Of a DNA stretch of 64,000 nucleotides, positions 2,852-46,900 are shown piece after piece. The DNA is taken from the NCBI RefSeq assembly GCF_030013205.1, contig NZ_CP122649.1; one strand, given 5' to 3'. The position numbers and the translations under genes were made by a program. The stretch comes from Escherichia coli (GTDB lineage Bacteria > Pseudomonadota > Gammaproteobacteria > Enterobacterales > Enterobacteriaceae). How positions within the stretch are numbered: position 1 is the first letter of the stretch; each line of letters starts with the position of its first letter. The notes below the pieces were generated by a model, which ran no database searches, was not told where the DNA came from, and saw only the letters and a list, made by a program, of their open reading frames with translations.

Positions 2852-4057
2852 ATGAATAGTTCGACAAAGATCGCATTGGTAATTACGTTACTCGATGCCA
2901 TGGGGATTGGCCTTATCATGCCAGTCTTGCCAACGTTATTACGTGAATTTATTGCTTCGGAAGATATCGCTAACCACTTTGGCGTATTGCTTGCACTTTA
3001 TGCGTTAATGCAGGTTATCTTTGCTCCTTGGCTTGGAAAAATGTCTGACCGATTTGGTCGGCGCCCAGTGCTGTTGTTGTCATTAATAGGCGCATCGCTG
3101 GATTACTTATTGCTGGCTTTTTCAAGTGCGCTTTGGATGCTGTATTTAGGCCGTTTGCTTTCAGGGATCACAGGAGCTACTGGGGCTGTCGCGGCATCGG
3201 TCATTGCCGATACCACCTCAGCTTCTCAACGCGTGAAGTGGTTCGGTTGGTTAGGGGCAAGTTTTGGGCTTGGTTTAATAGCGGGGCCTATTATTGGTGG
3301 TTTTGCAGGAGAGATTTCACCGCATAGTCCCTTTTTTATCGCTGCGTTGCTAAATATTGTCGCTTTCCTTGTGGTTATGTTTTGGTTCCGTGAAACCAAA
3401 AATACACGTGATAATACAGATACCGAAGTAGGGGTTGAGACGCAATCGAATTCGGTATACATCACTTTATTTAAAACGATGCCCATTTTGTTGATTATTT
3501 ATTTTTCAGCGCAATTGATAGGCCAAATTCCCGCAACGGTGTGGGTGCTATTTACCGAAAATCGTTTTGGATGGAATAGCATGATGGTTGGCTTTTCATT
3601 AGCGGGTCTTGGTCTTTTACACTCAGTATTCCAAGCCTTTGTGGCAGGAAGAATAGCCACTAAATGGGGCGAAAAAACGGCAGTACTGCTCGGATTTATT
3701 GCAGATAGTAGTGCATTTGCCTTTTTAGCGTTTATATCTGAAGGTTGGTTAGTTTTCCCTGTTTTAATTTTATTGGCTGGTGGTGGGATCGCTTTACCTG
3801 CATTACAGGGAGTGATGTCTATCCAAACAAAGAATCATCAGCAAGGTGCTTTACAGGGATTATTGGTGAGCCTTACCAATGCAACCGGTGTTATTGGCCC
3901 ATTACTGTTTGCTGTTATTTATAATCATTCACTACCAATTTGGGATGGCTGGATTTGGATTATTGGTTTAGCGTTTTACTGTATTATTATCCTGCTATCG
4001 ATGACCTTCATGTTAACCCCTCAAGCTCAGGGGAGTAAACAGGAGACAAGTGCTTAG
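2852..4057 (+). CDS. tet(B): tetracycline efflux MFS transporter TetA, class B
   Basis: 401-aa product starting MNSSTKIALVITLLDAMGIGLIMPVLPTLLREF...; the track ORF has a 16-codon upstream extension. Confidence 0.95.
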   Translation: MNSSTKIALVITLLDAMGIGLIMPVLPTLLREFIASEDIANHFGVLLALYALMQVIFAPWLGKMSDRFGRRPVLLLSLIGASLDYLLLAFSSALWMLYLGRLLSGITGATGAVAASVIADTTSASQRVKWFGWLGASFGLGLIAGPIIGGFAGEISPHSPFFIAALLNIVAFLVVMFWFRETKNTRDNTDTEVGVETQSNSVYITLFKTMPILLIIYFSAQLIGQIPATVWVLFTENRFGWNSMMVGFSLAGLGLLHSVFQAFVAGRIATKWGEKTAVLLGFIADSSAFAFLAFISEGWLVFPVLILLAGGGIALPALQGVMSIQTKNHQQGALQGLLVSLTNATGVIGPLLFAVIYNHSLPIWDGWIWIIGLAFYCIIILLSMTFMLTPQAQGSKQETSA

Positions 4058-4099
4058 TTATTTCGTCACCAAATGATGTTATTCCGCGAAATATAATGA

Positions 4100-4129
4100 C
4101 CCTCTTGATAACCCAAGAGGGCATTTTTT
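4100..4129. terminator. rho-independent terminator between convergent tetA and tetC remnant
   Basis: Stem CCCTCTTG / CAAGAGGG followed by a T-run. Confidence 0.6.
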
Positions 4130-4169
4130 ACGATAAAGAAGATTTAGCTTCAAATAAAACCTATCTATT

Positions 4170-4481
4170 TTATTTATCTTTCAAGCTCAATAAAAAGCCG
4201 CGGTAAATAGCAATAAATTGGCCTTTTTTATCGGCAAGCTCTTTTAGGTTTTTCGCATGTATTGCGATATGCATAAACCAGCCATTGAGTAAGTTTTTAA
4301 GCACATCATCATCATAAGCTTTAAGTTGGTTCTCTTGGATCAATTTGCTGACAATGGCGTTTACCTTACCAGTAATGTATTCAAGGCTAATTTTTTCAAG
4401 TTCATTCCAACCAATGATAGGCATCACTTCTTGGATAGGGATAAGGTTTTTATTATTATCAATAATATAATCAAGATAATG
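4170..4481 (-). pseudogene. tetC: 3' remnant of Tn10 tetC (TetR-family-like regulator), 5' end removed by IS1
   Basis: C-terminal 85+ aa ORF convergent with tetA, ending exactly at the IS1 boundary; identification rests on Tn10 gene order. Confidence 0.5.
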
Positions 4482-4536
4482 GGTGATGCTGCCAACTTAC
4501 TGATTTAGTGTATGATGGTGTTTTTGAGGTGCTCCA

Positions 4537-4812
4537 GTGGCTTCTGTTTCTATCAGCTGTCCCTCCTGTTCAGCTACTGACGGGGTGGTGCGTAACGGCA
4601 AAAGCACCGCCGGACATCAGCGCTATCTCTGCTCTCACTGCCGTAAAACATGGCAACTGCAGTTCACTTACACCGCTTCTCAACCCGGTACGCACCAGAA
4701 AATCATTGATATGGCCATGAATGGCGTTGGATGCCGGGCAACCGCCCGCATTATGGGCGTTGGCCTCAACACGATTTTCCGCCATTTAAAAAACTCAGGC
4801 CGCAGTCGGTAA
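4537..4812 (+). CDS. insA: IS1 InsA
   Basis: 91-aa product [40 protein letters not shown]... Confidence 0.92.
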
Positions 4813-5234
4813 CCTCGCGCATACAGCCGGGCAGTGACGTCATCGTCTGCGCGGAAATGGACGAACAGTGGGGATACGTCGGGGCTAAATCGCGCCAGCG
4901 CTGGCTGTTTTACGCGTATGACAGGCTCCGGAAGACGGTTGTTGCGCACGTATTCGGTGAACGCACTATGGCGACGCTGGGGCGTCTTATGAGCCTGCTG
5001 TCACCCTTTGACGTGGTGATATGGATGACGGATGGCTGGCCGCTGTATGAATCCCGCCTGAAGGGAAAGCTGCACGTAATCAGCAAGCGATATACGCAGC
5101 GAATTGAGCGGCATAACCTGAATCTGAGGCAGCACCTGGCACGGCTGGGACGGAAGTCGCTGTCGTTCTCAAAATCGGTGGAGCTGCATGACAAAGTCAT
5201 CGGGCATTATCTGAACATAAAACACTATCAATAA
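4731..5234 (+). CDS. insB: IS1 InsB reading frame (expressed as an InsAB fusion by -1 frameshift)
   Basis: Track ORF in -1 frame relative to insA, overlapping its 3' end. Confidence 0.85.
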
Positions 5235-5266
5235 GTTGGAGTCATTACCTATTTTTTTTACTACTC

Positions 5267-6073
5267 TCAAATTATTTTAATTCGAGGGAGAGCATAATCC
5301 ATTGTTTTGACGGTTCCATTTTCTTTAATTATATAGTGATGCCAACTATCTGATTTTGCGATTGCATCATCATATATACTTTGTGTAATTGCTAAAAAAT
5401 CTATGTTCATCCATGAAAATATCCCTTCATCAACAAATTCTTTTGATATTAATTCATAGTGACTATTTTTTTTCACTCCAACATATAACTTATATTTTTT
5501 CTCTATATTTTCAGCCAAACTATCAAATGAAATTATTGAGAAGTCACTTCGCTGTTGCCCTCTGATTAGTGCAGTTTTCTGTGTATTATTTTCATATTCT
5601 GATCTACGACCATGAACAAGGACATACTTGAAATTAAATGGATTTCTCCCCATATGTGCCGGTTCTATAAATCCCTGCAATATATTGTTTTTAAAGTGAT
5701 TTCTGTTTGATTCATCATCAAACCAAGCCCTCCATGTGTTCATTTGCTGCAAAGCAAGATTGAAGTCTGCATGAAAAGTTGTAGAGTTGTTTTTAAAATA
5801 TTTCGACGATGGTTTTTCAATTTCAACTAATACTACATTCCAGTTATCCGAGCTTTTTGATAAATATACGAAATCAGGTTTATAATCGCTTGATAGAGGC
5901 AACTTTCTAAATACCGTACTGAAGTGAATTCCATGGTTTTGCTCGAATTCTCTTGGTATGAACATTGTATTTTCTTCAAGGTATGTTTGATAAATCTGTT
6001 CATTCTCTTCTCGATCTAGTAATTCAAGATACTCTTTCTTTTTATCGTTTATTTCTTGACCAGTCATATACAT
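5267..6073 (-). CDS. hypothetical protein, 268 aa, AT-rich orphan gene with possible PD-(D/E)xK-like motif
   Basis: Clean 807-bp ORF, about 30 percent GC, between IS1 and the transposase remnant; motif KPDFVYL...VVLVEIEK. Confidence 0.6.
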   Translation of the reverse strand: MYMTGQEINDKKKEYLELLDREENEQIYQTYLEENTMFIPREFEQNHGIHFSTVFRKLPLSSDYKPDFVYLSKSSDNWNVVLVEIEKPSSKYFKNNSTTFHADFNLALQQMNTWRAWFDDESNRNHFKNNILQGFIEPAHMGRNPFNFKYVLVHGRRSEYENNTQKTALIRGQQRSDFSIISFDSLAENIEKKYKLYVGVKKNSHYELISKEFVDEGIFSWMNIDFLAITQSIYDDAIAKSDSWHHYIIKENGTVKTMDYALPRIKII

Positions 6074-6335
6074 AATTTACCATCTTTAAATTTAAGGCTC
6101 TGATTAGATTCATATCTACGCAATAAATTTTACATAGACTTGGTTTGTGGTAAGAAGTCACCGCGAAGCGGTTCGGGGTTCTGTGACACCCGGACTTTAC
6201 CCCGGCTACCCGACGTTTCTCTTTGTATATAATATCATTGAAGTTATTTGCATTTCTCAGAATTTTTTTCAGGCTTTGATTGCATTAACTGCAACACAGC
6301 GCTGCTGGTCAGTGAGTGCGAGGTTTCCGACAAGT

Positions 6336-7009
6336 TCACCTTTTACCAAAGATGGCCTCAGAGCTTCCTTGAAGCTTTATTATGGCTTCAAGCAGGTCAT
6401 CTTCGTTCAGCGAGCGCTGGGATTTGTTGATGCCTGGAGCATGTCGTCTGCGGGAAGGCTCATCTCCTGAAGGTAGCGACTGGGAGCGATTATTGTCCCT
6501 TTTTTTCTGGACCTGGCGGGCAACATCCAATACATGGCCCAGTCTTTTGTTATCAACAATCGCGACAGGATCGACTTCAGACAATCGGTCGTAGGTGGAG
6601 TAGGGCAGTAGCACGCCATTCAACCGCAGTTCCTTATGTCCGTCAGGATAGTGCCAGACATCAATATACTTGCCGATAGCCCTTCTACTGTATTCGCTGT
6701 CTTCAATCAGATAGAGCATTTTGTCATATTGTACGGTCAGACTTTTTGATACACGACGGGGCTCTCGCCAGGTAAATTCCGCATCCAGGTCATCGTCTAA
6801 TGCCAGCGGCCGATGTGCGTTAAAATCATGCAGGGGGGCTTTGGCGAAGCGCCGGTTATAATCCGCCATGTATTCCTCAGCAAATGCATTCGCGGCTTCT
6901 ATCGTACTGATCCCTTTAAGCCTGAGCTCCTTAACCAGCCGGTCCTGAAGTGTCAGGTGGGCGCGTTCCACACGGCCCTTTGCCTGGCTGGTCTCCGCAC
7001 ATAGCGGGG
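6336..7009 (-). pseudogene. 3' half of an integrase-type (rve, ISNCY/IS1202-like) transposase gene interrupted by the IS26-bounded insertion
   Basis: Reading frame is continuous with 24078-24851 once the insertion and one copy of the 8-bp repeat are removed (...NITPL | CAETSQAKGRVERAHL...). Confidence 0.75.
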
Positions 7010-8095
<1,086 letters not shown>

Positions 8096-8207
8096 TACGC
8101 CTATTTTTATAGGTTAATGTCATGATAATAATGGTTTCTTAGACGTCAGGTGGCACTTTTCGGGGAAATGTGCGCGGAACCCCTATTTGTTTATTTTTCT
8201 AAATACA

Positions 8208-35679: not shown

Positions 35680-36510
35680 TTAGCCTCCACGGGCCTTCTG
35701 GATTGCGTATTTCAGGGTGGCCTCGTCAACAGCGCCCGGGATGAATGACGTCGTTGCAGCGTCGGGTTTTTGCATGTTCATAATAATGAACCCTGGCGTA
35801 CCGTTAATCCCGAGAGCTTCCCCCAGCTGCATGTTTCCGGAGATAACGTTCTCATAGCGGCTTTTCTCCCGATCGCCGAATGAGCTGTTGAACCCGGATT
35901 TGTTCACAACCATGTCTAAATCATTGAGTGTAAACGCACGCTGGTTGTTGAAGAATACATACGCACTGGTCATCAGATTGTTGTGATACTTACGATACGC
36001 TTCCGCACCGAATGTCTGATACACATGCAGGCCTGTCGCCGCCCCCATTGCGGAAACAGGTTTTGAGCCAGCGAAGATCGGAAATTCTTTAAAGAAGAAC
36101 TTTACATCAGTGCTTTGGCTCAACACAGATTCAACAACCGGCGCTACCTGCATACAGAAATGACACTGGTAGTCGAAAAACTCAATAACAGCGACGGCCG
36201 CATTATCAGGTCCGATATTGGGTGTCTCTTTGGTCTCGAAGAGTGCCGGTGCGTAGGGGATAATCCGCTCAAGGGAAGCGTTAGTATTTTCTTTTTCTAG
36301 CGCCTTACCTGCTTCGAGAAGATACTGGGGATTTTTTACCAGATAGGAAGCAGCTACTCGTCCTATTTCGTCGTTACCCGGTACATCGGGTTTTAGATAT
36401 TTCGACGTAATATACACAGAGCCAGCCGTCGCAATCACCGCAGAAATTAAAACAGACGCCACGGGTTTTAAATAATTTAATTTAATCATAGCCACCTTTA
36501 CGCATTTCAA
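35680..36510 (-). CDS. DsbA-like thiol:disulfide oxidoreductase (thioredoxin fold, CHFC)
   Basis: FDYQCHFCMQ active-site motif; N-terminal hydrophobic segment. Confidence 0.7.
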   Translation of the reverse strand: MKCVKVAMIKLNYLKPVASVLISAVIATAGSVYITSKYLKPDVPGNDEIGRVAASYLVKNPQYLLEAGKALEKENTNASLERIIPYAPALFETKETPNIGPDNAAVAVIEFFDYQCHFCMQVAPVVESVLSQSTDVKFFFKEFPIFAGSKPVSAMGAATGLHVYQTFGAEAYRKYHNNLMTSAYVFFNNQRAFTLNDLDMVVNKSGFNSSFGDREKSRYENVISGNMQLGEALGINGTPGFIIMNMQKPDAATTSFIPGAVDEATLKYAIQKARGG

Positions 36511-38128: not shown

Positions 38129-38878
38129 TCACTTTTGTTCGGCACCCATGCGGGTCACCAGATTTTCCGGGCTCATCCAACCGGTGAATAGCTGAGGTTT
38201 CCCCGACAGCGTTACCATCGTTGGCGTACCCTGAAGCGGAATAGTTGAAGCTACCTGGAAATGCGATTTGATGGTATCGAGGCAGGCCTCGTCAGGCCGT
38301 CCTTCCGGAATGGTTGATGTCGGGCTCATTGCGGCATCCAGTGCATCATTAGGTTTTGCCGCACACCATATTTTTGCCATATTCCCCGCGACAACGGAGT
38401 TGAGACCTGCACGTGGAAAGGCGAGGAATTTGATTGAGATCCCGGCGTCGAGATAGGATTGAAGATCTTGATGCAATTTCTGGCAAAAGCCGCATGTAAT
38501 ATCCGTAAACACTGCCAGACGGTATTTTTCATTCGCCGACTTATATTCGATGGATTTTGTTTTAGTGGCGAACTCCCTGACACCTTTCAGAATAGCCTGC
38601 TCAGTTGTGTTCTCCACATCTTTCCCGTTCACATGAAACAAGCTCCCGGTGAAAATGTAATCGCCATCTTTGCTGACGTAGCTCACGCCCTCTCTTGAAA
38701 TGACGGTATAAATATCTTTTACCGGCGATGGTTCAATATGCTCGATAGACAAGCCCACTTCTCTTAATTTCTTCAGTGCAGCATCGGGAAGCACGTCAGT
38801 GTTCGCTGTCTGGGCATTCATACTCAAGGCCGTACAGGATGCCAGTAAAAATAATGATGCCTTGATAGTCTTATTCAT
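38129..38878 (-). CDS. dsbC: DsbC-like periplasmic disulfide isomerase (CGFC)
   Basis: Signal peptide; FTDITCGFCQKLH active-site motif. Confidence 0.75.
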   Translation of the reverse strand: MNKTIKASLFLLASCTALSMNAQTANTDVLPDAALKKLREVGLSIEHIEPSPVKDIYTVISREGVSYVSKDGDYIFTGSLFHVNGKDVENTTEQAILKGVREFATKTKSIEYKSANEKYRLAVFTDITCGFCQKLHQDLQSYLDAGISIKFLAFPRAGLNSVVAGNMAKIWCAAKPNDALDAAMSPTSTIPEGRPDEACLDTIKSHFQVASTIPLQGTPTMVTLSGKPQLFTGWMSPENLVTRMGAEQK

Positions 38879-39592: not shown

Positions 39593-40204
39593 ATGCGGCT
39601 CTTAGAGAATGAAAACGTCCTGAGAAAAAGGTTAACGATGCTCCAGTCAATTTATAAATTCCTGTTCAATTTATGCAGTTCACCGCAGCTGCCCAAAAAT
39701 AAAGACGTGGATGGGATATTGTCTCATGAAGAAATAACCGCTGGATTATGGGGTCCTTTGCCATCAATCCATGTTGTTCTTTTCCTGGATTTTGATGGTG
39801 TAGTCCACAAATGTCAGAATGAATCGTTCGAGAGGATGCATTTGATTGAGAGGTTACTTGACGCGAGTCCTTCAATGTTCATCGTTATATCAAGCTCATG
39901 GAGAGAGTGCGGCAGTATCACTTACCTAAAGTCACTTTTCCGCTCGCCATACAGAGACAGGGTAATTGGAGCAACCCCATCCCTGTATCTCCCCTCAGGA
40001 AGTATAGGAGTCCGTGCAGCTGAATGTGAGGACTTCGTCACCAGACACAAAGTAAAAGCCTTTATCTGCCTTGATGACGATGCGACCCTGTTTCCTCCAG
40101 AGTACCCGCACCTGTTTCGTACAGATTATTACACCGGGGTTAATGAAAAGGATCTAACGGACCTGATAGCCAGATATAATGTGCTGATGACCCGCTTTTA
40201 TTGA
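39593..40204 (+). CDS. HAD-like hydrolase family protein
   Basis: VVLFLDFDGVVH motif (DxDG); start codon uncertain. Confidence 0.5.
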   Translation: MRLLENENVLRKRLTMLQSIYKFLFNLCSSPQLPKNKDVDGILSHEEITAGLWGPLPSIHVVLFLDFDGVVHKCQNESFERMHLIERLLDASPSMFIVISSSWRECGSITYLKSLFRSPYRDRVIGATPSLYLPSGSIGVRAAECEDFVTRHKVKAFICLDDDATLFPPEYPHLFRTDYYTGVNEKDLTDLIARYNVLMTRFY

Positions 40205-40450
40205 AAAAGTAACTTTTCCACACCCTCCATACAACCAAAGCCTCTGATGCGCTATAGCCTAGGCACTAAAGCATCAGTCGATTCAGAAAAGTTACTTTTC
40301 TCTCAATTTTCATTTTGAACAGAAGAAATGCACATTTTCTTAGTGTGCCGGGTGACCTGTATTTGGTGAGGAAATTTGAATCAGGGTGATGCAAGCAAAA
40401 AAAGACCGTACTCAAAAGAGAGTACGGCCTTTATCAGCTACTACTTACTT

Positions 40451-43400
40451 TTACTTCTTATTTTCATTCAGCCAGCTTTTAGCTTTCTCAATTCTCGACT
40501 GATATGGTTCATTTGTATTATTCAGGTTTGACTTCATAAAGCTCACGAATGCATCTGCTTTATCCGGCCCAAAACGTGGATCATCGGTCAGTTGCTGACG
40601 AATCGCACGTTCTGAGTTTTGTGATGCAGTCTCATACGCCTTGATCCCATCCCCCCCCATATCCTTATACCTGCTGGTCACCTCGCTAACACCATCTGAC
40701 ATTTGCAGGTGATTTCCAACCTTGCCCAATAGCGAGCTCGGCATATTTTGTGGATTCGAAGCATCGTTTGCCAAAGATGAAGGGGTGGTCAGGATACCCA
40801 TACCTGAGAGCATGTCGTTTACAGGTTTAGCTCCGATAACGTCAAGTCCTCTGGCAACACTCTCCTGCCCCGATAAAAGCGTACTACCAATAACACCACG
40901 TTCTGTATTGGACTCAATTTTATTACCAACAAGGAGATCCGTCGTGGTTTGGGTTCGTTGCCCAACGAGCCCGCCGCCAGAACCACCTTCCCCAAGATTC
41001 GCCCTCACAACTGAGTCAAGAGAACCTGAAGCCTTGTTATGCATGTTGAAACCTTCATGGATATTCTGGAGATCGTTCATCCCCCAGCGAACGTTATAGT
41101 GACTCAGTTCGGAGAGGATATTTTGAGTATCCGCTTTCAGTTGTTCTTTCTCAGCGCCGGTTGCCATTGTACTGGCGCCATAGGTAAACACAGCTTGTGC
41201 GGCCAGTTCCGCACGTTTGTCATCCGGCTTTTTGGTAGGATCATTTGCAATCCTGCCAAAATAATTCGGGAGGTTGCCTGATATACCGCGTATCTGGTTA
41301 TCTCCGTACATATTATTCAGTTTGTCGCTGATAGTACCCATGCCCGAAGTCGCATGCTTACCGCCCGAACCAGCCTGTAACTGGTCGAAAGTTTGGTTGG
41401 CGTGCTGAACGTCCACCCCAGCCCCCTGAACTCTTCCCACAGTTTCATTCGTCACAACAGGGGTATTCTTCTCCAATGACGAGAGCACATTCTGGTTCTC
41501 TTCGCTATAGGATTTATTTACATTACCTTGATGAATGCCCTGAATATCTTCTTTGCTGATCTTGTCCACATTGTACGGAGTTACACCAGACTCAGTTTGT
41601 CCACCAACATGCTGGTTAGCATTTTGTTGGTTTTGTACCAGCCCGGCTTTTGCCTGAGCATCCATACTTTGCCCCACGTCAGCAACACGATCAGCGCTCA
41701 TTACGCTGGACGTATTTACATGTTCTGGGGTGCGATCCTGCGCCTGTGCAATCGTGTTAATACCCGAGGCATCACCAGTGATTCGGTCAAGCTGATTAGT
41801 AATCGGCAGCATCTGTTGAGCGTTACCGCCAAAGTCAGCAACCAGCCCTTTAAGCAGGCTGGAAGTTTCACGCAGATCCTGTTTATTGCTCTCAGCCGTT
41901 TCACCTCGGGCAGTATCAATCGCTATTTTTTGCTCACTAAAGTCACGTGTCGTTGCCACCAGCGCATCTGTACGTTGGAGTTGTGAACCCAACTGAGTGC
42001 TGGCCTTAAATGTGTCATTATAGGAATTGAACTTCTCCATAAAGGCATTCTCATCAAGACCATTTTTCCGTGCAAAATTACGCACATCTTCATCGCTAAA
42101 GTTTTTATTACGGATAGAATCGGAGAATCTGTCCAGGTTGATAGCCTGTCTTGAGTCGAGTGTCATGCCAGTATTGGCGCTGGCGTTCGTTGAAAGTGAC
42201 GTCGACAAGTTTTCGGCCATTGTCTGTGTGGACTGGTTCATTTTTGTTGCAGCTTCTTTGAATGCATTGGTCTGTGCAAACTGATCACTGTTTATCTGAG
42301 CAGCCGCTTTAGTCATTTGGTCAGTCAGTCCTGAGTTTTCAGTCAATTGAGTCGTAATAGCTTTACTCAAATCAGTTAAGAGACTTTCATTCCCAGAATT
42401 ACTTTTCGTGATCCCTGATCCAACTTGCCCCCCCGCTTTTATTCCTAGGCTATCCATTACTTTCTGAGCGAGACCTCCTCCTCCTCCTTTTCCAAGTTTT
42501 TCTTCACCACCAAGTCCCAAACTGCCATTGAGCAGAAGATTTGACACCACGCCAGCTAATTGCTGCGAATTAATTCCATGCTTCGCCCCTACGCTATTCG
42601 CGATGTTTGCACCGGCCTGGTCAGTAAATGATTTCAAGCTTTGCAGGTTGGAGGTAAATTGCTGGCCTGATTGCCCCGTTCGGCCAACTTCACTCATCTG
42701 GTTGAAGGCCTGCTGGAATGTGTTACTTGCTGCGCTCATGGCTGAAGAGGTAAATGCTGCCCCTTGCCCCTGGCTTGACGCGATACTTGAACCGGCATTC
42801 CACGTACCGAGTCGGAAATTACTGGAGTCCATGGCCCCGCCACCACTGAATCCTTGGCCGGTGCTTGTCAGCGCGGTACGATTCACATCCCCAAACGATG
42901 ATTTTCCGCTGTTTGGCGCATCCCACACTTTCGGCGTGAGGTGGCTGGAGTCCACTGGCGCTGGTGGTGTGACTCCTTTCATCGCGTTCATCATTGGATG
43001 AATGGATTGCGTCATCAGGAACAGCGTCAATACAGGGATAAGAGCATAGAGTGCTGATGCTACTGATAAATAAGAGCTGTATGTTTCGGCAAGCCCTGGC
43101 AAACCCATCCATGTCACCGCGTTACTCTGACTATTCAATGTGCTCCATGTATCAAGATCTGCGGTCGCCACTTTCTTCACGTAGGCATTCACCATAACCG
43201 CAGTAATAGGCCACATATTTACGAAAAGAATAAGCTGGAGATATTTTGCAGCAGCGGCCACACCATTTCCCCCGAGAGCCAAAAGCATGAGCAATGCAAA
43301 TGGGGCAACCATGTACGCAAACATCTCAAGAAACGCGATGGCTGCACCGGACAATTGCAGCCAGAGCTGCCCCTGAGATGCCATGGTATTCGTACGCTTT

Positions 43401-44440
43401 AATGATGCCTCAAACAACTGCATATCCGAGGCCAGCCCGAGTGGGGTTTTGTACTTGCTGGCACCATTACGGAGTTCATTCATGATGAACAAACTAAGCG
43501 TCGCGTCATAAGCACCAATAGCTTTGCCGTACATGCCATTCGCCGACGCCATTACATCCGTGAAGCTCGCTCCTGATGCTGCACCTCCCGCCTCATCTGG
43601 AGCAAGGATACCGTTTGTTTGCCCAATCAATGCAATCGTCTGCCGAGCCTCTGGGGTGCTCGTTACCTGTTTAACGGTCGACCAGACCTCTTCACAAGTA
43701 GCAGACTTTGAGCTATTCACACCGACAATGTTGGCAGAGGCGTTCTTCAGCGAACCTTTCATCGCCTGATTAATGCGTTCCATGCTATCCACGATATTTG
43801 CAGAGAAAATATCGTTAAAAATGGTTTCTTTCCCAGCAATTTTTGCGCTTGAGTTTTGGGTTCCCTTGAGACAGTTATAGGCCAGTGATTGTACTGTCGC
43901 GCACACATTCATCGCACCTAACCCGCTGGCTGGTTCGGGAAACGCAGAACAATAGCCCTGGCTGTCACCACCCCATTGTAAGAATTTAACGAAACGAATC
44001 ATCGGACCAAGAGTAATGTCATCATCAAGCGTCGTTGCGGCAAAGTCGATCGGCGCCAGTGGATCAAATGCCGTTTTGTAGTCTTTGAGTAAGCCCTGGC
44101 TAAGGTTCGTGGTGACAGTTCCCATCGCCGCAATAAAAATAGGAATGCCATCGACATTTCTCACTTCACCAGACTTAACTGATTCAATCGTCACATCCAC
44201 ACGAACAATTGCCATCGAAAATAGAATCAGCCCAAGAATCCATGAAAATATCGGCACTTCTGCTTTTGTCGGGTTCAACAGCCAAAGCCACGTTTTATAA
44301 AACAGGCTGGCTCCAGCCAGTACCGCTGCCGTCGTTAGAAATGCTTTTACACCGGTGTATTGTGAGAAAATCAGGGCAATCCCGTTCAGGGCGGACCACA
44401 CAAATTCAATATCGCCAACTGTATAGATGTTGTAATCCAT
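40451..44440 (-). CDS. trhG: F-type TraG-family mating-pair stabilisation protein (TrhG-like), 1329 aa
   Basis: Multi-TM TraG_N-like N-terminal half, long Q/N/S/G-rich C-terminal half; last gene of the trhF-trhH-trhG operon. Confidence 0.8.
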   Translation of the reverse strand: MDYNIYTVGDIEFVWSALNGIALIFSQYTGVKAFLTTAAVLAGASLFYKTWLWLLNPTKAEVPIFSWILGLILFSMAIVRVDVTIESVKSGEVRNVDGIPIFIAAMGTVTTNLSQGLLKDYKTAFDPLAPIDFAATTLDDDITLGPMIRFVKFLQWGGDSQGYCSAFPEPASGLGAMNVCATVQSLAYNCLKGTQNSSAKIAGKETIFNDIFSANIVDSMERINQAMKGSLKNASANIVGVNSSKSATCEEVWSTVKQVTSTPEARQTIALIGQTNGILAPDEAGGAASGASFTDVMASANGMYGKAIGAYDATLSLFIMNELRNGASKYKTPLGLASDMQLFEASLKRTNTMASQGQLWLQLSGAAIAFLEMFAYMVAPFALLMLLALGGNGVAAAAKYLQLILFVNMWPITAVMVNAYVKKVATADLDTWSTLNSQSNAVTWMGLPGLAETYSSYLSVASALYALIPVLTLFLMTQSIHPMMNAMKGVTPPAPVDSSHLTPKVWDAPNSGKSSFGDVNRTALTSTGQGFSGGGAMDSSNFRLGTWNAGSSIASSQGQGAAFTSSAMSAASNTFQQAFNQMSEVGRTGQSGQQFTSNLQSLKSFTDQAGANIANSVGAKHGINSQQLAGVVSNLLLNGSLGLGGEEKLGKGGGGGLAQKVMDSLGIKAGGQVGSGITKSNSGNESLLTDLSKAITTQLTENSGLTDQMTKAAAQINSDQFAQTNAFKEAATKMNQSTQTMAENLSTSLSTNASANTGMTLDSRQAINLDRFSDSIRNKNFSDEDVRNFARKNGLDENAFMEKFNSYNDTFKASTQLGSQLQRTDALVATTRDFSEQKIAIDTARGETAESNKQDLRETSSLLKGLVADFGGNAQQMLPITNQLDRITGDASGINTIAQAQDRTPEHVNTSSVMSADRVADVGQSMDAQAKAGLVQNQQNANQHVGGQTESGVTPYNVDKISKEDIQGIHQGNVNKSYSEENQNVLSSLEKNTPVVTNETVGRVQGAGVDVQHANQTFDQLQAGSGGKHATSGMGTISDKLNNMYGDNQIRGISGNLPNYFGRIANDPTKKPDDKRAELAAQAVFTYGASTMATGAEKEQLKADTQNILSELSHYNVRWGMNDLQNIHEGFNMHNKASGSLDSVVRANLGEGGSGGGLVGQRTQTTTDLLVGNKIESNTERGVIGSTLLSGQESVARGLDVIGAKPVNDMLSGMGILTTPSSLANDASNPQNMPSSLLGKVGNHLQMSDGVSEVTSRYKDMGGDGIKAYETASQNSERAIRQQLTDDPRFGPDKADAFVSFMKSNLNNTNEPYQSRIEKAKSWLNENKK

Positions 44441-44448
44441 ATCAGACC

Positions 44449-45870
44449 TCAGTTACCTGTGCCACGAAGACTTTCCATGAACGCTTTTCTCTTTAATCGG
44501 CGATCATCCCATGCAGAAATGACGTCAGAGCTGTTGCCCACCTGGCTACGGGTTAGCTCATAGGCAGCTTTTACCTGATTGGTCAGGTTTTCAGATAACC
44601 TAGTCAGGTCCTGCCGCCGCCCGGAAAGAGATTCGCTGGGTATATTCATAGCGCTGATCTTTGCTTCAACTTGCCGAAGCATGTTAATAACAAGGCTGGT
44701 GGCCGCTATCGCACTGATATCCTGGATATAGGCGTAGCCTTCAGGGACATCAAACGTCTGAAGTGAATCAAGAATAGTTGGGATGCCAATATAAGAAATA
44801 ATGCGTAATTCATCATCAGAGATCCTGACATCACTAATTGCCTTTGTCTGAACCTGAATAAGGAGGTCCGAGATTGTATCCTTCAAACCTTTGAAACCAC
44901 CATCCGTCACTTCAGACATAACCAGGCATTGCGACTTTCTAGCTGAAGCTGGATCGGGGGCAGGCGAACATTTGAGCATTTTTATGGAACCACCAGCCGG
45001 TGGGCCCATGATGAAATCCGATACCGTCATCGTCGACGGGCGAACTTCCATCCCCGCTTTTTCACCTTTAGCGTCCCAGTTGATAATTACAGTACCGACA
45101 AGCGACATCAGCTGCTCAGCAAGTCTGTAGCCAGATAGCTCAGTCACGCCACCGATATTCATTGACCCTTTATCGATGTCCATAAATGACATATAGAAAA
45201 GGTTTCCACTGAATTTTTCAGCAAACTCTTCAGGGTCTTTTGCTTTTACCTGGGAAGTCACGGTTTCCGGCGACTTTGTCATTGATGAACCAAAATCAGG
45301 CAACAGTCCATTAAGAGTGCCAAGCATTGAAGCAGGGCCGGAACTGACAGCATTCGCAAACTGGCTAGGTGGACCAACATTTTCAGTAAGAAACGAATAA
45401 GTAGCGTTGCATGAATCTTTGGCAAATTTATTCAGCGCCTGCAATTTATTCTGGATATCGTTAATAGTCGCAGCACAGTCAGCACAGATTGCCGATACCG
45501 CGACATTGAATGCATAAATTGCAGCCCCCTGTGCAATACCGCGAGCAACCTGAACCAGCTGATCTCCGTTAATCATACTGAAGGAACCAAGGAAAACATC
45601 GATTCCGTTGCAGCCTACGGAAGCTTTGGGAAAAGACATTGACACTAAATTGGTATTCACGTTTGTCGTGCGGTAGGAAAATGAGCCGCCAACCACTCCG
45701 GTACGGGTGGCCGTTTCAAAACTAGCTGGGCTCGTAGTCGTCATCATGCCATTGAAAATATTACGCATGGCGTTATCGGCAACGGCATTTGGCGCAATCA
45801 TCGCCGTGCAAACGGCTAACGATAAAAGTAACTTTTTTGCACAAACATGGAAATCAGCGCGCATATGCAC
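44449..45870 (-). CDS. trhH: F-type TraH-family pilus assembly protein (TrhH-like)
   Basis: Signal peptide; motifs GGSFSYRT and VGCNGIDVFLGSFSMINGDQLVQ typical of TraH. Confidence 0.8.
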   Translation of the reverse strand: MHMRADFHVCAKKLLLSLAVCTAMIAPNAVADNAMRNIFNGMMTTTSPASFETATRTGVVGGSFSYRTTNVNTNLVSMSFPKASVGCNGIDVFLGSFSMINGDQLVQVARGIAQGAAIYAFNVAVSAICADCAATINDIQNKLQALNKFAKDSCNATYSFLTENVGPPSQFANAVSSGPASMLGTLNGLLPDFGSSMTKSPETVTSQVKAKDPEEFAEKFSGNLFYMSFMDIDKGSMNIGGVTELSGYRLAEQLMSLVGTVIINWDAKGEKAGMEVRPSTMTVSDFIMGPPAGGSIKMLKCSPAPDPASARKSQCLVMSEVTDGGFKGLKDTISDLLIQVQTKAISDVRISDDELRIISYIGIPTILDSLQTFDVPEGYAYIQDISAIAATSLVINMLRQVEAKISAMNIPSESLSGRRQDLTRLSENLTNQVKAAYELTRSQVGNSSDVISAWDDRRLKRKAFMESLRGTGN

Positions 45871-46900
45871 CTCCTAAACTTCCACCCACATTCAGATAGT
45901 TCACTGGGTCCGCCGTTGGCATATCGTACCCTTCCAGTTTCTTATCCATTATTCGTTGCAATAAGAACGGGTCAGAGTCCATTTCTGATTTATTCACAGT
46001 AATTACGCCATCCTCGCCAATGGTATATTGGCGCTTAATATCTAAAGTGGACTGGAAAGAGGCATCATCAATCAGCTTCATGCCTTTTGCAGCCAGAATA
46101 ATAGTATTCTTGAGCTCCTCAGCAGTGATCATGCCTTCGCTTATTCGTTGCGCTGATGACCCATCTTTTGAGACAAGGAAAATAGTTGGAACTTCACGGA
46201 TTTTAAATTGATCAATAATCTGCGCATTAGGTACAGAGAAATCCTGGAACAACCCATTCTGTAGTGGTCTGCCGTCCATGCTGACAGGAAGAATGTCGAC
46301 AGAATAGTAATTCTCCATAAACTGGAGTATTTGACTTTCTTCGTGGCAGAACTGACAAGTACTCTGGAAAAAGAAAAACAGCCCGGATTTAGTGAAAATA
46401 TCTTTCATAACCGACTGCTGATTTTTCTCGACCACCGTACGATGTGCATCGAGCGCTACCTTTTCAACCGGTTGCCTGCGTTTTTCAGACATCATTGGAT
46501 TTTTAAGGAAATAATCTTTCGATTTATCCGAAAACCGCGTACCGATATCCAGCATTAAACGTTGTGCTGTATAAAATCTCGATAAATTTTCAGGGGTCGG
46601 ATTATCCATAGCCTTGGTCAAAAGCTGAGGCATATTGTCCTTTAGCCACTTTGAATTAAGCTCAATCTTTTCTTCTTGTTCTGGCTGGGTCGAAGATGCA
46701 ACAGGAGGCTTGGTCTCTGTAATTTCTTCCTCAGTTTTCCTTGTCGGGTCGTCATACCAGAAAAAGCCTTTCTTGAAGGCCTGTCCTGATACAAAGGGAG
46801 TGTCTTTGATAAGGGCCTGCTCTTCATTTGCATGGACCCCAGTAATAAACAAAGACAGCAGCACTAACATCTTTGAAGGTATTAACGTTAATCGAGTCAT
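45854..46900 (-). CDS. trhF: F-type TraF/TrbB-like thioredoxin-fold pilus assembly protein (TrhF-like, CQFC)
   Basis: Signal peptide; C-terminal thioredoxin-like region with CQFC; overlaps trhH start. Confidence 0.75.
   Translation of the reverse strand: MTRLTLIPSKMLVLLSLFITGVHANEEQALIKDTPFVSGQAFKKGFFWYDDPTRKTEEEITETKPPVASSTQPEQEEKIELNSKWLKDNMPQLLTKAMDNPTPENLSRFYTAQRLMLDIGTRFSDKSKDYFLKNPMMSEKRRQPVEKVALDAHRTVVEKNQQSVMKDIFTKSGLFFFFQSTCQFCHEESQILQFMENYYSVDILPVSMDGRPLQNGLFQDFSVPNAQIIDQFKIREVPTIFLVSKDGSSAQRISEGMITAEELKNTIILAAKGMKLIDDASFQSTLDIKRQYTIGEDGVITVNKSEMDSDPFLLQRIMDKKLEGYDMPTADPVNYLNVGGSLGGAYAR

Follow-up and report, generated by a model that had tools for sequence, protein, structure and literature searches.

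Conjugative plasmids of incompatibility group HI1 (IncHI1), R27 and pHCM1 among them, are vehicles by which multidrug resistance spreads in Salmonella Typhi and Escherichia coli. In a stretch of 64,000 nucleotides from an E. coli plasmid of this group (contig NZ_CP122649.1; the whole stretch is hereafter called the window), the minus strand carries at positions 40451-44440 the gene trhG, which encodes a conjugation protein of the TraG family considerably longer than its counterpart on the F plasmid. Of what is the additional length made, and what might it contribute to conjugation? For the large hydrophilic domains of extended VirB6 proteins, the contribution has been called 'not yet known' (PMC12857230). 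As described below, TrhG bears on a VirB6-type membrane domain a tethered, cysteine-free arm of ~830 residues, predicted to be helical and modular; by analogy with F TraG, this arm would probably work in the mating junction once the pilus has been assembled.

By sequence, the gene is TrhG of the IncHI1 plasmid R27, a member of the F-type TraG or 'extended VirB6' family. It is an uninterrupted open reading frame (ORF) of 3990 nt (1329 codons and a stop), and its DNA is 100% identical across many IncHI1 plasmids, in more than 200 of which the Prokaryotic Genome Annotation Pipeline (PGAP) annotates the identical 3990-nt coding sequence (CDS) under the label 'conjugal transfer protein TraG N-terminal domain-containing protein'. 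Membership in the TraG family, already assigned in an earlier note made from the DNA letters alone, is borne out by a match to Pfam TraG_N (PF07916; 105 bits against a gathering cutoff of 36.1, E 6e-30, best stretch amino acids (aa) 231-490) and by trhF-trhH-trhG synteny, trhH and the thioredoxin-family gene trhF lying directly upstream. The backbone is typed by MOB-suite as MOBH, MPF_F and IncHI1A; the window represents the Tra1 side of R27, the Tra2 region, including trhN, being elsewhere on the plasmid. TrhG is named among the mating-pair-formation (Mpf) proteins of R27 in the part of PMC11628540 that cites Lawley 2002.

The earlier note was concerned with positions 40451-42500, that is, aa 647-1329 plus the stop codon, and it rightly called the protein far longer than F TraG: 1329 aa against 938 aa (P33790), a difference of 391 aa. 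The C-terminal half is 100% identical to that of R27 (NC_002305.1), and the window is in essence R27 sequence, hence the gene was already known, and so were its family and unusual length; what is added here is a domain map and the correction of two descriptive claims. This is the description of a known protein, not of a new system. The map nevertheless provides concrete boundaries, namely three helical modules, two hypervariable segments, a glycine loop and a constrained motif just after the membrane domain.

Selection and composition in the C-terminal half

Purifying selection marks the C-terminal half of TrhG as genuine coding sequence. The ratio of nonsynonymous to synonymous substitution rates (dN/dS) was measured against pNDM-CIT, for which dS is ~0.4 over the whole gene, the comparison of IncHI1 with IncHI2 being saturated at synonymous sites. 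It amounts to 0.026 for aa 1-500 and 0.163 for aa 501-1329, and falls back to 0.035 within the latter at aa 751-900. No 40-codon window of trhG exceeds 1 in this comparison, the maxima being 0.88 at aa 701-740 and 0.60 at aa 1001-1040; with dN/dS below 1 everywhere, the divergence of the C-terminal half can be reconciled with relaxed constraint. Homologues collinear over their full length, 1307-1331 aa, occur on plasmids of Salmonella, Escherichia, Enterobacter, Lelliottia, Buttiauxella, Rahnella, Photorhabdus and Klebsiella, and their C-terminal identity to R27 TrhG can be as low as 21-45%. The kept length at such identities, together with the dN/dS of 0.16, disposes of the frame artefact that the earlier note had named as a possible undoing of its reading.

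Divergence is concentrated in this half. Identity to pNDM-CIT, IncHI2 and a Klebsiella MOBH plasmid is 98, 91 and 49%, respectively, over aa 1-500, and 89, 69 and 25% over aa 501-1329. Between IncHI1 and IncHI2, TrhH and TrhN are both 87% identical and the N-terminus of TrhG 91%, as opposed to 69% for its C-terminal half, which on these identities is the fastest-evolving part among the Tra proteins tested. It is thus not invariant across plasmid groups, the other finding that would have spoken against the earlier note. Within IncHI1, TrhG is nearly invariant, with 4-8 amino acid changes, all but one of which fall in the C-terminal half.

The composition is indeed skewed. Glutamine, asparagine, serine, threonine and glycine (QNSTG) make up 43.3% of aa 647-1329 and 55.4% of aa 501-646, compared to 31.6% of aa 1-500; after aa 500 there is not a single cysteine, tryptophan accounts for only 0.5%, and alanine belongs with QNSTG to the residues in which the C-terminal half is rich. 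The earlier note was correct about this richness and too cautious about its extent, since the bias starts right after the last membrane helix (~aa 500) and spans ~830 residues instead of ~600. Two further descriptors have to be given up. As for low complexity, NCBI segmasker (SEG) masks only 35 of the 683 residues of aa 647-1329, in the glycine runs 647-657 and 1150-1160 and in a serine/threonine/asparagine patch at 744-757, and Shannon entropy per 40 aa, 3.0-3.9 bits overall, is near normal past aa 760. As for repeated short motifs, BLASTP of aa 501-1329 against itself yields no off-diagonal match at E<=10, 3-, 4- and 5-mers recur as in composition-preserving shuffles (z -0.7 to +1.0), and Tandem Repeats Finder (TRF) detects in the DNA a sole repeat, (CCT)5 at 42474-42488, which encodes Gly652-656.

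The same bias is encountered in the C-terminal halves of all relatives tested, F TraG and Shewanella TraG included: QNSTG 41-46% and no cysteine. Their compositions correlate with r 0.86-0.97 even where sequence similarity is undetectable. The skewed composition is therefore a property of the family that is kept even where sequence is not.

Domain map and predicted structure

The N-terminal portion, aa 1-480 (43001..44440, minus strand, as are all the following segments), is the polytopic membrane domain TraG_N, recognised by the Pfam match above and by hydropathy, with peaks taken as membrane segments at aa 61-79, 371-389, 403-421 and 458-476. Past aa 500 there are no membrane segments, the maximum Kyte-Doolittle hydropathy in 19-residue windows being 0.99 over aa 501-1329. 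Searches of the whole protein against Pfam and NCBIfam, and of aa 501-1329 against PDB sequences, returned nothing beyond TraG_N. The description of the C-terminal half draws on conservation profiles of 18 family members and on an AlphaFold2 (AF2) model of aa 501-1329, in which 284 of the 829 residues reach a predicted local distance difference test score (pLDDT) of at least 70 and 316 score below 50. The model is almost purely helical (35 helices), its low-confidence stretches (pLDDT<50) being aa 501-566, 644-685, 745-764, most of 889-1033, and 1181-1218, and its confident blocks approximately aa 771-880, 1061-1150 and 1221-1329, where the best windows score 79-90 and a few blocks only 42-66. 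Model confidence and conservation are positively correlated (Spearman 0.30, p 0.007). The C-terminal half is thus predicted to be all-helical and modular, with three conserved helical blocks joined by fast-diverging segments. A VirB8-like fold (NTF2, alpha+beta) has been proposed for TraG* in PMC7555446; the all-helical prediction argues against such a fold for the C-terminal half of TrhG. A second AF2 model, of aa 1-760, is too poor for its topology to be read (mean pLDDT 48).

Directly after the last membrane helix, aa 481-560 (42761..43000) hold a constrained motif rich in glycine, serine and threonine, TPxVW..G..FGD..TG.G..GG. It shows zero amino acid changes with respect to pNDM-CIT at dS ~0.4, it is aligned with 'SFGQ..TGSG' of F TraG, and its FG..TG.G residues are kept as far as that protein. 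The model of the C-terminal half scores below ~35 over aa 501-540 and 30-51 over aa 541-560, and the model of aa 1-760 below 35 over aa 481-560; the corresponding stretch of R100 TraG* (452-496) has been called a 'flexible linker' (PMC9797247). The motif, among the most constrained parts of TrhG, thus departs from the correlation between model confidence and conservation. Such strong constraint despite predicted disorder suggests a binding or docking motif rather than a mere spacer. There follow a helical segment at aa 561-640 (42521..42760), with AF2 helices and collinear with F TraG ~530-620 (BLASTP E 1e-3; profile alignment with hhalign E 4e-5), and the first hypervariable segment, HV1, at aa 641-700 (42341..42520), a poorly predicted glycine-rich loop with length polymorphism in the family alignment, which holds the (CCT)5 repeat found by TRF. 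The next segment, aa 701-760 (42161..42340), is helical and moderately conserved; it is still collinear with a 1400-aa Shewanella TraG, and it shows the highest local dN/dS (0.88).

The first of the three helical blocks is a conserved island at aa 761-890 (41771..42160), delimited by identity, dN/dS and AF2. Six helices are predicted, block-mean pLDDT is mostly 61-84 with the top values (72-84) at aa 771-810, and identity to pNDM-CIT, IncHI2 and the Klebsiella plasmid at aa 801-900 is 99, 92 and 32%. The second hypervariable segment, HV2, covers aa 891-1050 (41291..41770); poorly predicted, with a dN/dS of 0.21 (local 0.60), it is 37-62% identical to IncHI2 and 9-25% to distant relatives. The second helical module, aa 1051-1150 (40991..41290), contains the conserved block 'DDKRAELAxQAVF' and is modelled confidently, with pLDDT 79-88 over most of aa 1061-1150 and 57 in the block aa 1131-1140. 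A glycine run, GEGGSGGG (segmasker 1149-1159, 0-based), and a low-confidence linker (pLDDT<50 at 1181-1218) occupy aa 1151-1220 (40781..40990). The protein ends with a helical bundle at aa 1221-1329 (40454..40780), where block-mean pLDDT is 64-90 (84-90 over aa 1271-1329); it is marked by a DDPR[FY]GP motif and a terminal [WF]L-x-x-x-[KR][KR] tail, and the invariants of the C-terminal alignment (in its own numbering) are L784, P788, G791, A795, L824 and K829. A positively charged C-terminal signal for type IV secretion was looked for here and rejected: there is only the terminal KK/KR pair, and the net charge of the last 20 residues is ~0.

Little of this arm can be related to F TraG. BLASTP aligns TrhG 321-646 with F 288-626 (E 1e-3), and hhalign, given a profile of the TrhG family, pairs aa 363-675 with F 332-643 (E 4e-5, probability 70%), the N-terminus being included. 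Without the N-terminus, TrhG 501-675 aligns only weakly with F 470-643 (E 1e-3, probability 21%, against a 17-sequence profile of F-like C-termini). Past aa 675, profile-profile comparison with the same 17-sequence alignment (F 644-938) detects no similarity; the string 'EKAKS[WY]', near the C-terminus of both proteins, is devoid of statistical support as a sign of homology. With only aa 501-675 detectably related to F TraG, the functional map of F is not transferable to aa 676-1329, a segment that likewise has no counterpart among solved structures in the PDB sequence search. Of 1.84 billion representative proteins searched by phmmer with aa 501-1329, 27 were hit, four of them over the full length. 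The ~650 residues past aa 675 are, as judged from such searches, a lineage-restricted addition present only in IncHI-like plasmids of Enterobacterales.

Separate from the arm, the membrane half has a feature of its own in the loop aa 80-360: cysteines C164, C180, C190 and C249 are invariant in seven proteins of the TrhG lineage and, with F and Shewanella TraG in the alignment, still conserved to 90% or more. Three genes for thioredoxin-fold or Dsb-like proteins (one of the DsbA family, one DsbC-like, and TrhF) lie nearby, at 35680-36510, 38129-38878 and 45854-46900, which suggests that aa 80-360 form a disulfide-bonded periplasmic loop serviced by plasmid-encoded oxidoreductases.

A proposed role for the arm, and its rivals

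What could such an arm do? In the F plasmid, the C-terminal domain of TraG is needed for mating-pair stabilisation and exclusion (PMC9797247, PMC7555446) and has been proposed to reach through the mating pore (PMC7555446), while VirB6 is a pentameric base under the pilus through which the substrate passes (PMC12624023). By analogy with F TraG and with the position of VirB6, the membrane half of TrhG would serve pilus assembly, and the tethered helical arm would act afterwards in the mating junction, helping to stabilise the mating pair or to form the channel. The conserved blocks may dock onto other transfer proteins, and the variable loops, HV1 foremost, may face the partner cell or plasmid-specific factors. 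On balance, an arm working after pilus assembly, with docking modules and exposed hypervariable loops, appears the more probable account.

The candidate for an exposed specificity loop is HV1. F and R100 TraG are 93% identical overall and only 17% in 610-673, a segment predicted as a loop that sets the specificity for TraS (PMC9797247). In the weak collinear alignments described above, F 626 falls opposite TrhG 646 (BLASTP, E 1e-3) and F 643 opposite TrhG 675 (hhalign, 4e-5), so that HV1 comes to lie opposite the segment that fixes TraS specificity in F/R100. Compared pairwise, five close relatives with N-terminal halves 94-98% identical agree in only 60-82% of HV1, their most divergent segment in each case; HV1 differs by indels between IncHI2 and R27 TrhG; and in two Salmonella TrhG proteins, 96% identical overall and fully so over 1-578, the sole length difference is a 15-aa indel at 652-666. 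In an IncHI2-type TrhG (P0065), a natural in-frame deletion of 88 aa takes HV1 out altogether. HV1 thus behaves like a specificity cassette of the F/R100 type, in partial support of its candidacy. The perfect (CCT)5 repeat lies inside this indel-prone segment, and slipped-strand events at the repeat are a plausible source of its in-frame length variation.

Some points weigh against the proposed role. Function is assigned by analogy with F TraG, to which only aa 501-675 show detectable homology. The AF2 model of the arm has a mean pLDDT of 58 and a predicted TM score (pTM) of 0.38, from a shallow alignment of 27 sequences. Accounts of where the C-terminal part of TraG resides are in conflict, since it is periplasmic for F TraG according to PMC9797247, whereas PMC11493245 speaks of cytoplasmic determinants for SXT/F TraG. 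Finally, exclusion by R27 is described, in the passages of PMC11493245 and PMC8923210 that cite Gunton et al. 2008, as requiring that donor and recipient alike carry EexA and EexB, which would thus act as factor and target; those passages assign no role in R27 exclusion to TrhG.

How do other explanations fare? That the long tail is a frame artefact or a decaying pseudo-extension, and not functional coding sequence, is exceedingly improbable: the ORF is unbroken and of conserved length in all lineages, dS is ~0.37 with a dN of 0.06, PGAP makes identical CDS calls, and the antisense ORFs lack any family match. Nothing speaks for it beyond the hint given by a number of database entries that are truncated or fused (e.g. 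P0049-P0089, P0081/P0082), many of which are marked partial by their source, as befits fragmentary assemblies. Two of them, P0081 and P0082, carry the annotation DNA adenine methylase (PF02086) and still match 77% of the C-terminal half of TrhG, a combination suggestive of fusion or misassembly. More serious is the idea of a flexible spacer, i.e. a mostly disordered tether whose length and composition are selected and whose sequence is immaterial. Length is held at 1307-1331 aa while identity drops to 21-26%, composition is conserved where sequence similarity is lost (r 0.86-0.97), 316 of 829 residues score below 50 in pLDDT, and dN/dS is six-fold above that of the N-terminal half. A mere spacer, however, would hardly contain an island (aa 751-900) with a dN/dS of 0.035 and 92-99% identity between IncHI groups, helical modules with block-mean pLDDT of 79-90, the conserved motifs DDKRAELAxQAVF and DDPRYGP and an invariant C-terminal tail, nor would it be expected to show, with an overall dN/dS of 0.16, clear purifying selection; the spacer is thus unlikely.

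The earlier note had favoured a different option, namely that the extension carries plasmid-specific recognition. In its broad form, in which the whole C-terminal extension is a recognition surface setting the specificity of mating-pair stabilisation and entry exclusion among IncHI plasmids, this remains rather doubtful. It gains from the fact that the C-terminal half is the fastest-evolving among the Tra proteins tested, that HV1 sits at the F/R100 specificity position and is a hotspot of indels even where two proteins are 96% identical, and that in F and R100 a short divergent cassette within TraG proteins otherwise 93% identical sets TraS specificity (PMC9797247). It loses from the attribution of R27 exclusion to EexA and EexB in the papers citing Gunton et al. 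2008, from the lack of an exclusion gene adjoining trhG, with a terminator after the stop codon instead, from dN/dS values below 1 throughout, and from the lack of an F homologue for aa 676-1329. It also loses from the strong conservation of large parts of the half, aa 761-890 and 1051-1100, between IncHI1 and IncHI2. What survives of the recognition claim is the HV1 loop, in the first part of the interval that the earlier note had considered; the whole extension does not qualify. About as tentative is another idea, according to which TrhG, like F-type TraG generally, would supply with its C-terminal half the missing VirB5-like component or a threaded element of F- and H-type systems. F-type systems are, puzzlingly, without VirB5, and they have a larger central cylinder than the stalk of VirB5 and VirB6 in minimal systems (PMC12857230). 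The composition of the arm is closest to that of FliC (r 0.88) and FliD (r 0.83) among 33 E. coli proteins, a small control set that makes the ranking a lead only. FliC and FliD are exported unfolded through a narrow channel. On these grounds the arm, flagellin-like in composition, could be a VirB5 substitute: tethered to the VirB6 pentamer at the pilus base, the cysteine-free helical arm would build the central cylinder or thread through it toward the mating junction or the recipient, its helical blocks being structural and the HV1 loop a surface read by plasmid-specific exclusion factors.

The surroundings of trhG and known systems compared

A strong intrinsic-terminator-like hairpin (40401..40432, minus strand; 13-bp stem and T tract) begins 19 nt past the stop codon, which makes trhG the end of a trhF-trhH-trhG transcription unit. 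The next gene downstream, at 39593-40204 on the plus strand and convergent with trhG, encodes a HAD domain; directly after trhG there is thus no exclusion gene, the terminator and the HAD-domain gene standing in its place. The HAD-domain gene is only 64% identical between IncHI1 and IncHI2, compared to 84-91% for neighbouring transfer genes. In the IncHI2 plasmid pEC-IMP, two additional genes lie downstream of trhG (6118-7695), one of the YrhA family and one for an HNH endonuclease; both are absent from the corresponding space of the IncHI1 window (40205-40450), and they may represent the insertion of a toxin/immunity-like pair. The Rfam search gave no family, and the plus-strand ORFs overlapping trhG have no family match. 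It is worth recording that in PLSDB/MOB-suite R27 (NC_002305.1) is typed as 'IncFIA', not IncHI1, and pNDM-CIT as IncHI1A, hence replicon labels alone are unfit for assigning IncHI subgroups.

With F and R100 TraG, TrhG shares the TraG_N membrane domain and the traF-traH-traG order within an MPF_F system, a hydrophilic, cysteine-free C-terminal half rich in QNSTG, the conserved glycine/serine/threonine motif right after the last membrane helix and, at the same relative position (F 610-673, TrhG 641-700), a poorly predicted divergent loop. It differs from F TraG in an N-terminal identity of only ~22%, in the relaxase type of its plasmid (MOBH, as opposed to MOBF in F) and in what follows the gene: traS and traT come after traG in F, whereas no traS/traT-like genes come after trhG.

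Other MOBH / MPF_F backbones are those of the SXT/R391 integrative and conjugative elements and of IncA/IncC plasmids, whose TraG is likened to TrhG from literature descriptions only. Residues 606-608 of R391/SXT TraG set exclusion specificity (PMC7555446), and by residue number they are close to HV1 of TrhG. In the donor these TraG proteins are the target of the entry-exclusion proteins Eex/EexC; PMC11493245 describes them as VirB6 homologues on which an exclusion factor of the inner membrane acts, and in these elements eex adjoins traG, whereas none stands beside trhG in the window. A tblastn search with the two halves of TrhG found no SXT/R391 or IncA/IncC plasmid above threshold, with the exception of the Shewanella 1400-aa TraG. 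The latter, encoded by Shewanella xiamenensis pHDC555-1 (3998-8200) after traF-traH, is collinear with TrhG to aa 792 only (hhalign, TrhG 3-792 against 2-750, E 4e-29); its C-terminal 650 aa are different, yet of the same skewed, cysteine-free composition. Long divergent tails thus seem to be general to this branch of TraG.

At a coarser level, TrhG matches the architecture of 'extended VirB6' proteins, namely at least five hydrophobic helices and a large C-proximal hydrophilic domain (the class of Alvarez-Martinez and Christie 2009, as relayed in PMC12857230), a class that is defined by architecture and not by homology of the hydrophilic domain. The closest comparison is offered by the TrhG homologues of IncHI2 (R478/pEC-IMP), pNDM-CIT and the Klebsiella MOBH plasmid, which at 1308-1329 aa have the same order of modules as R27 TrhG and depart from it through HV1 indels of 11-24 aa and an HV2 that is 37-62% identical.

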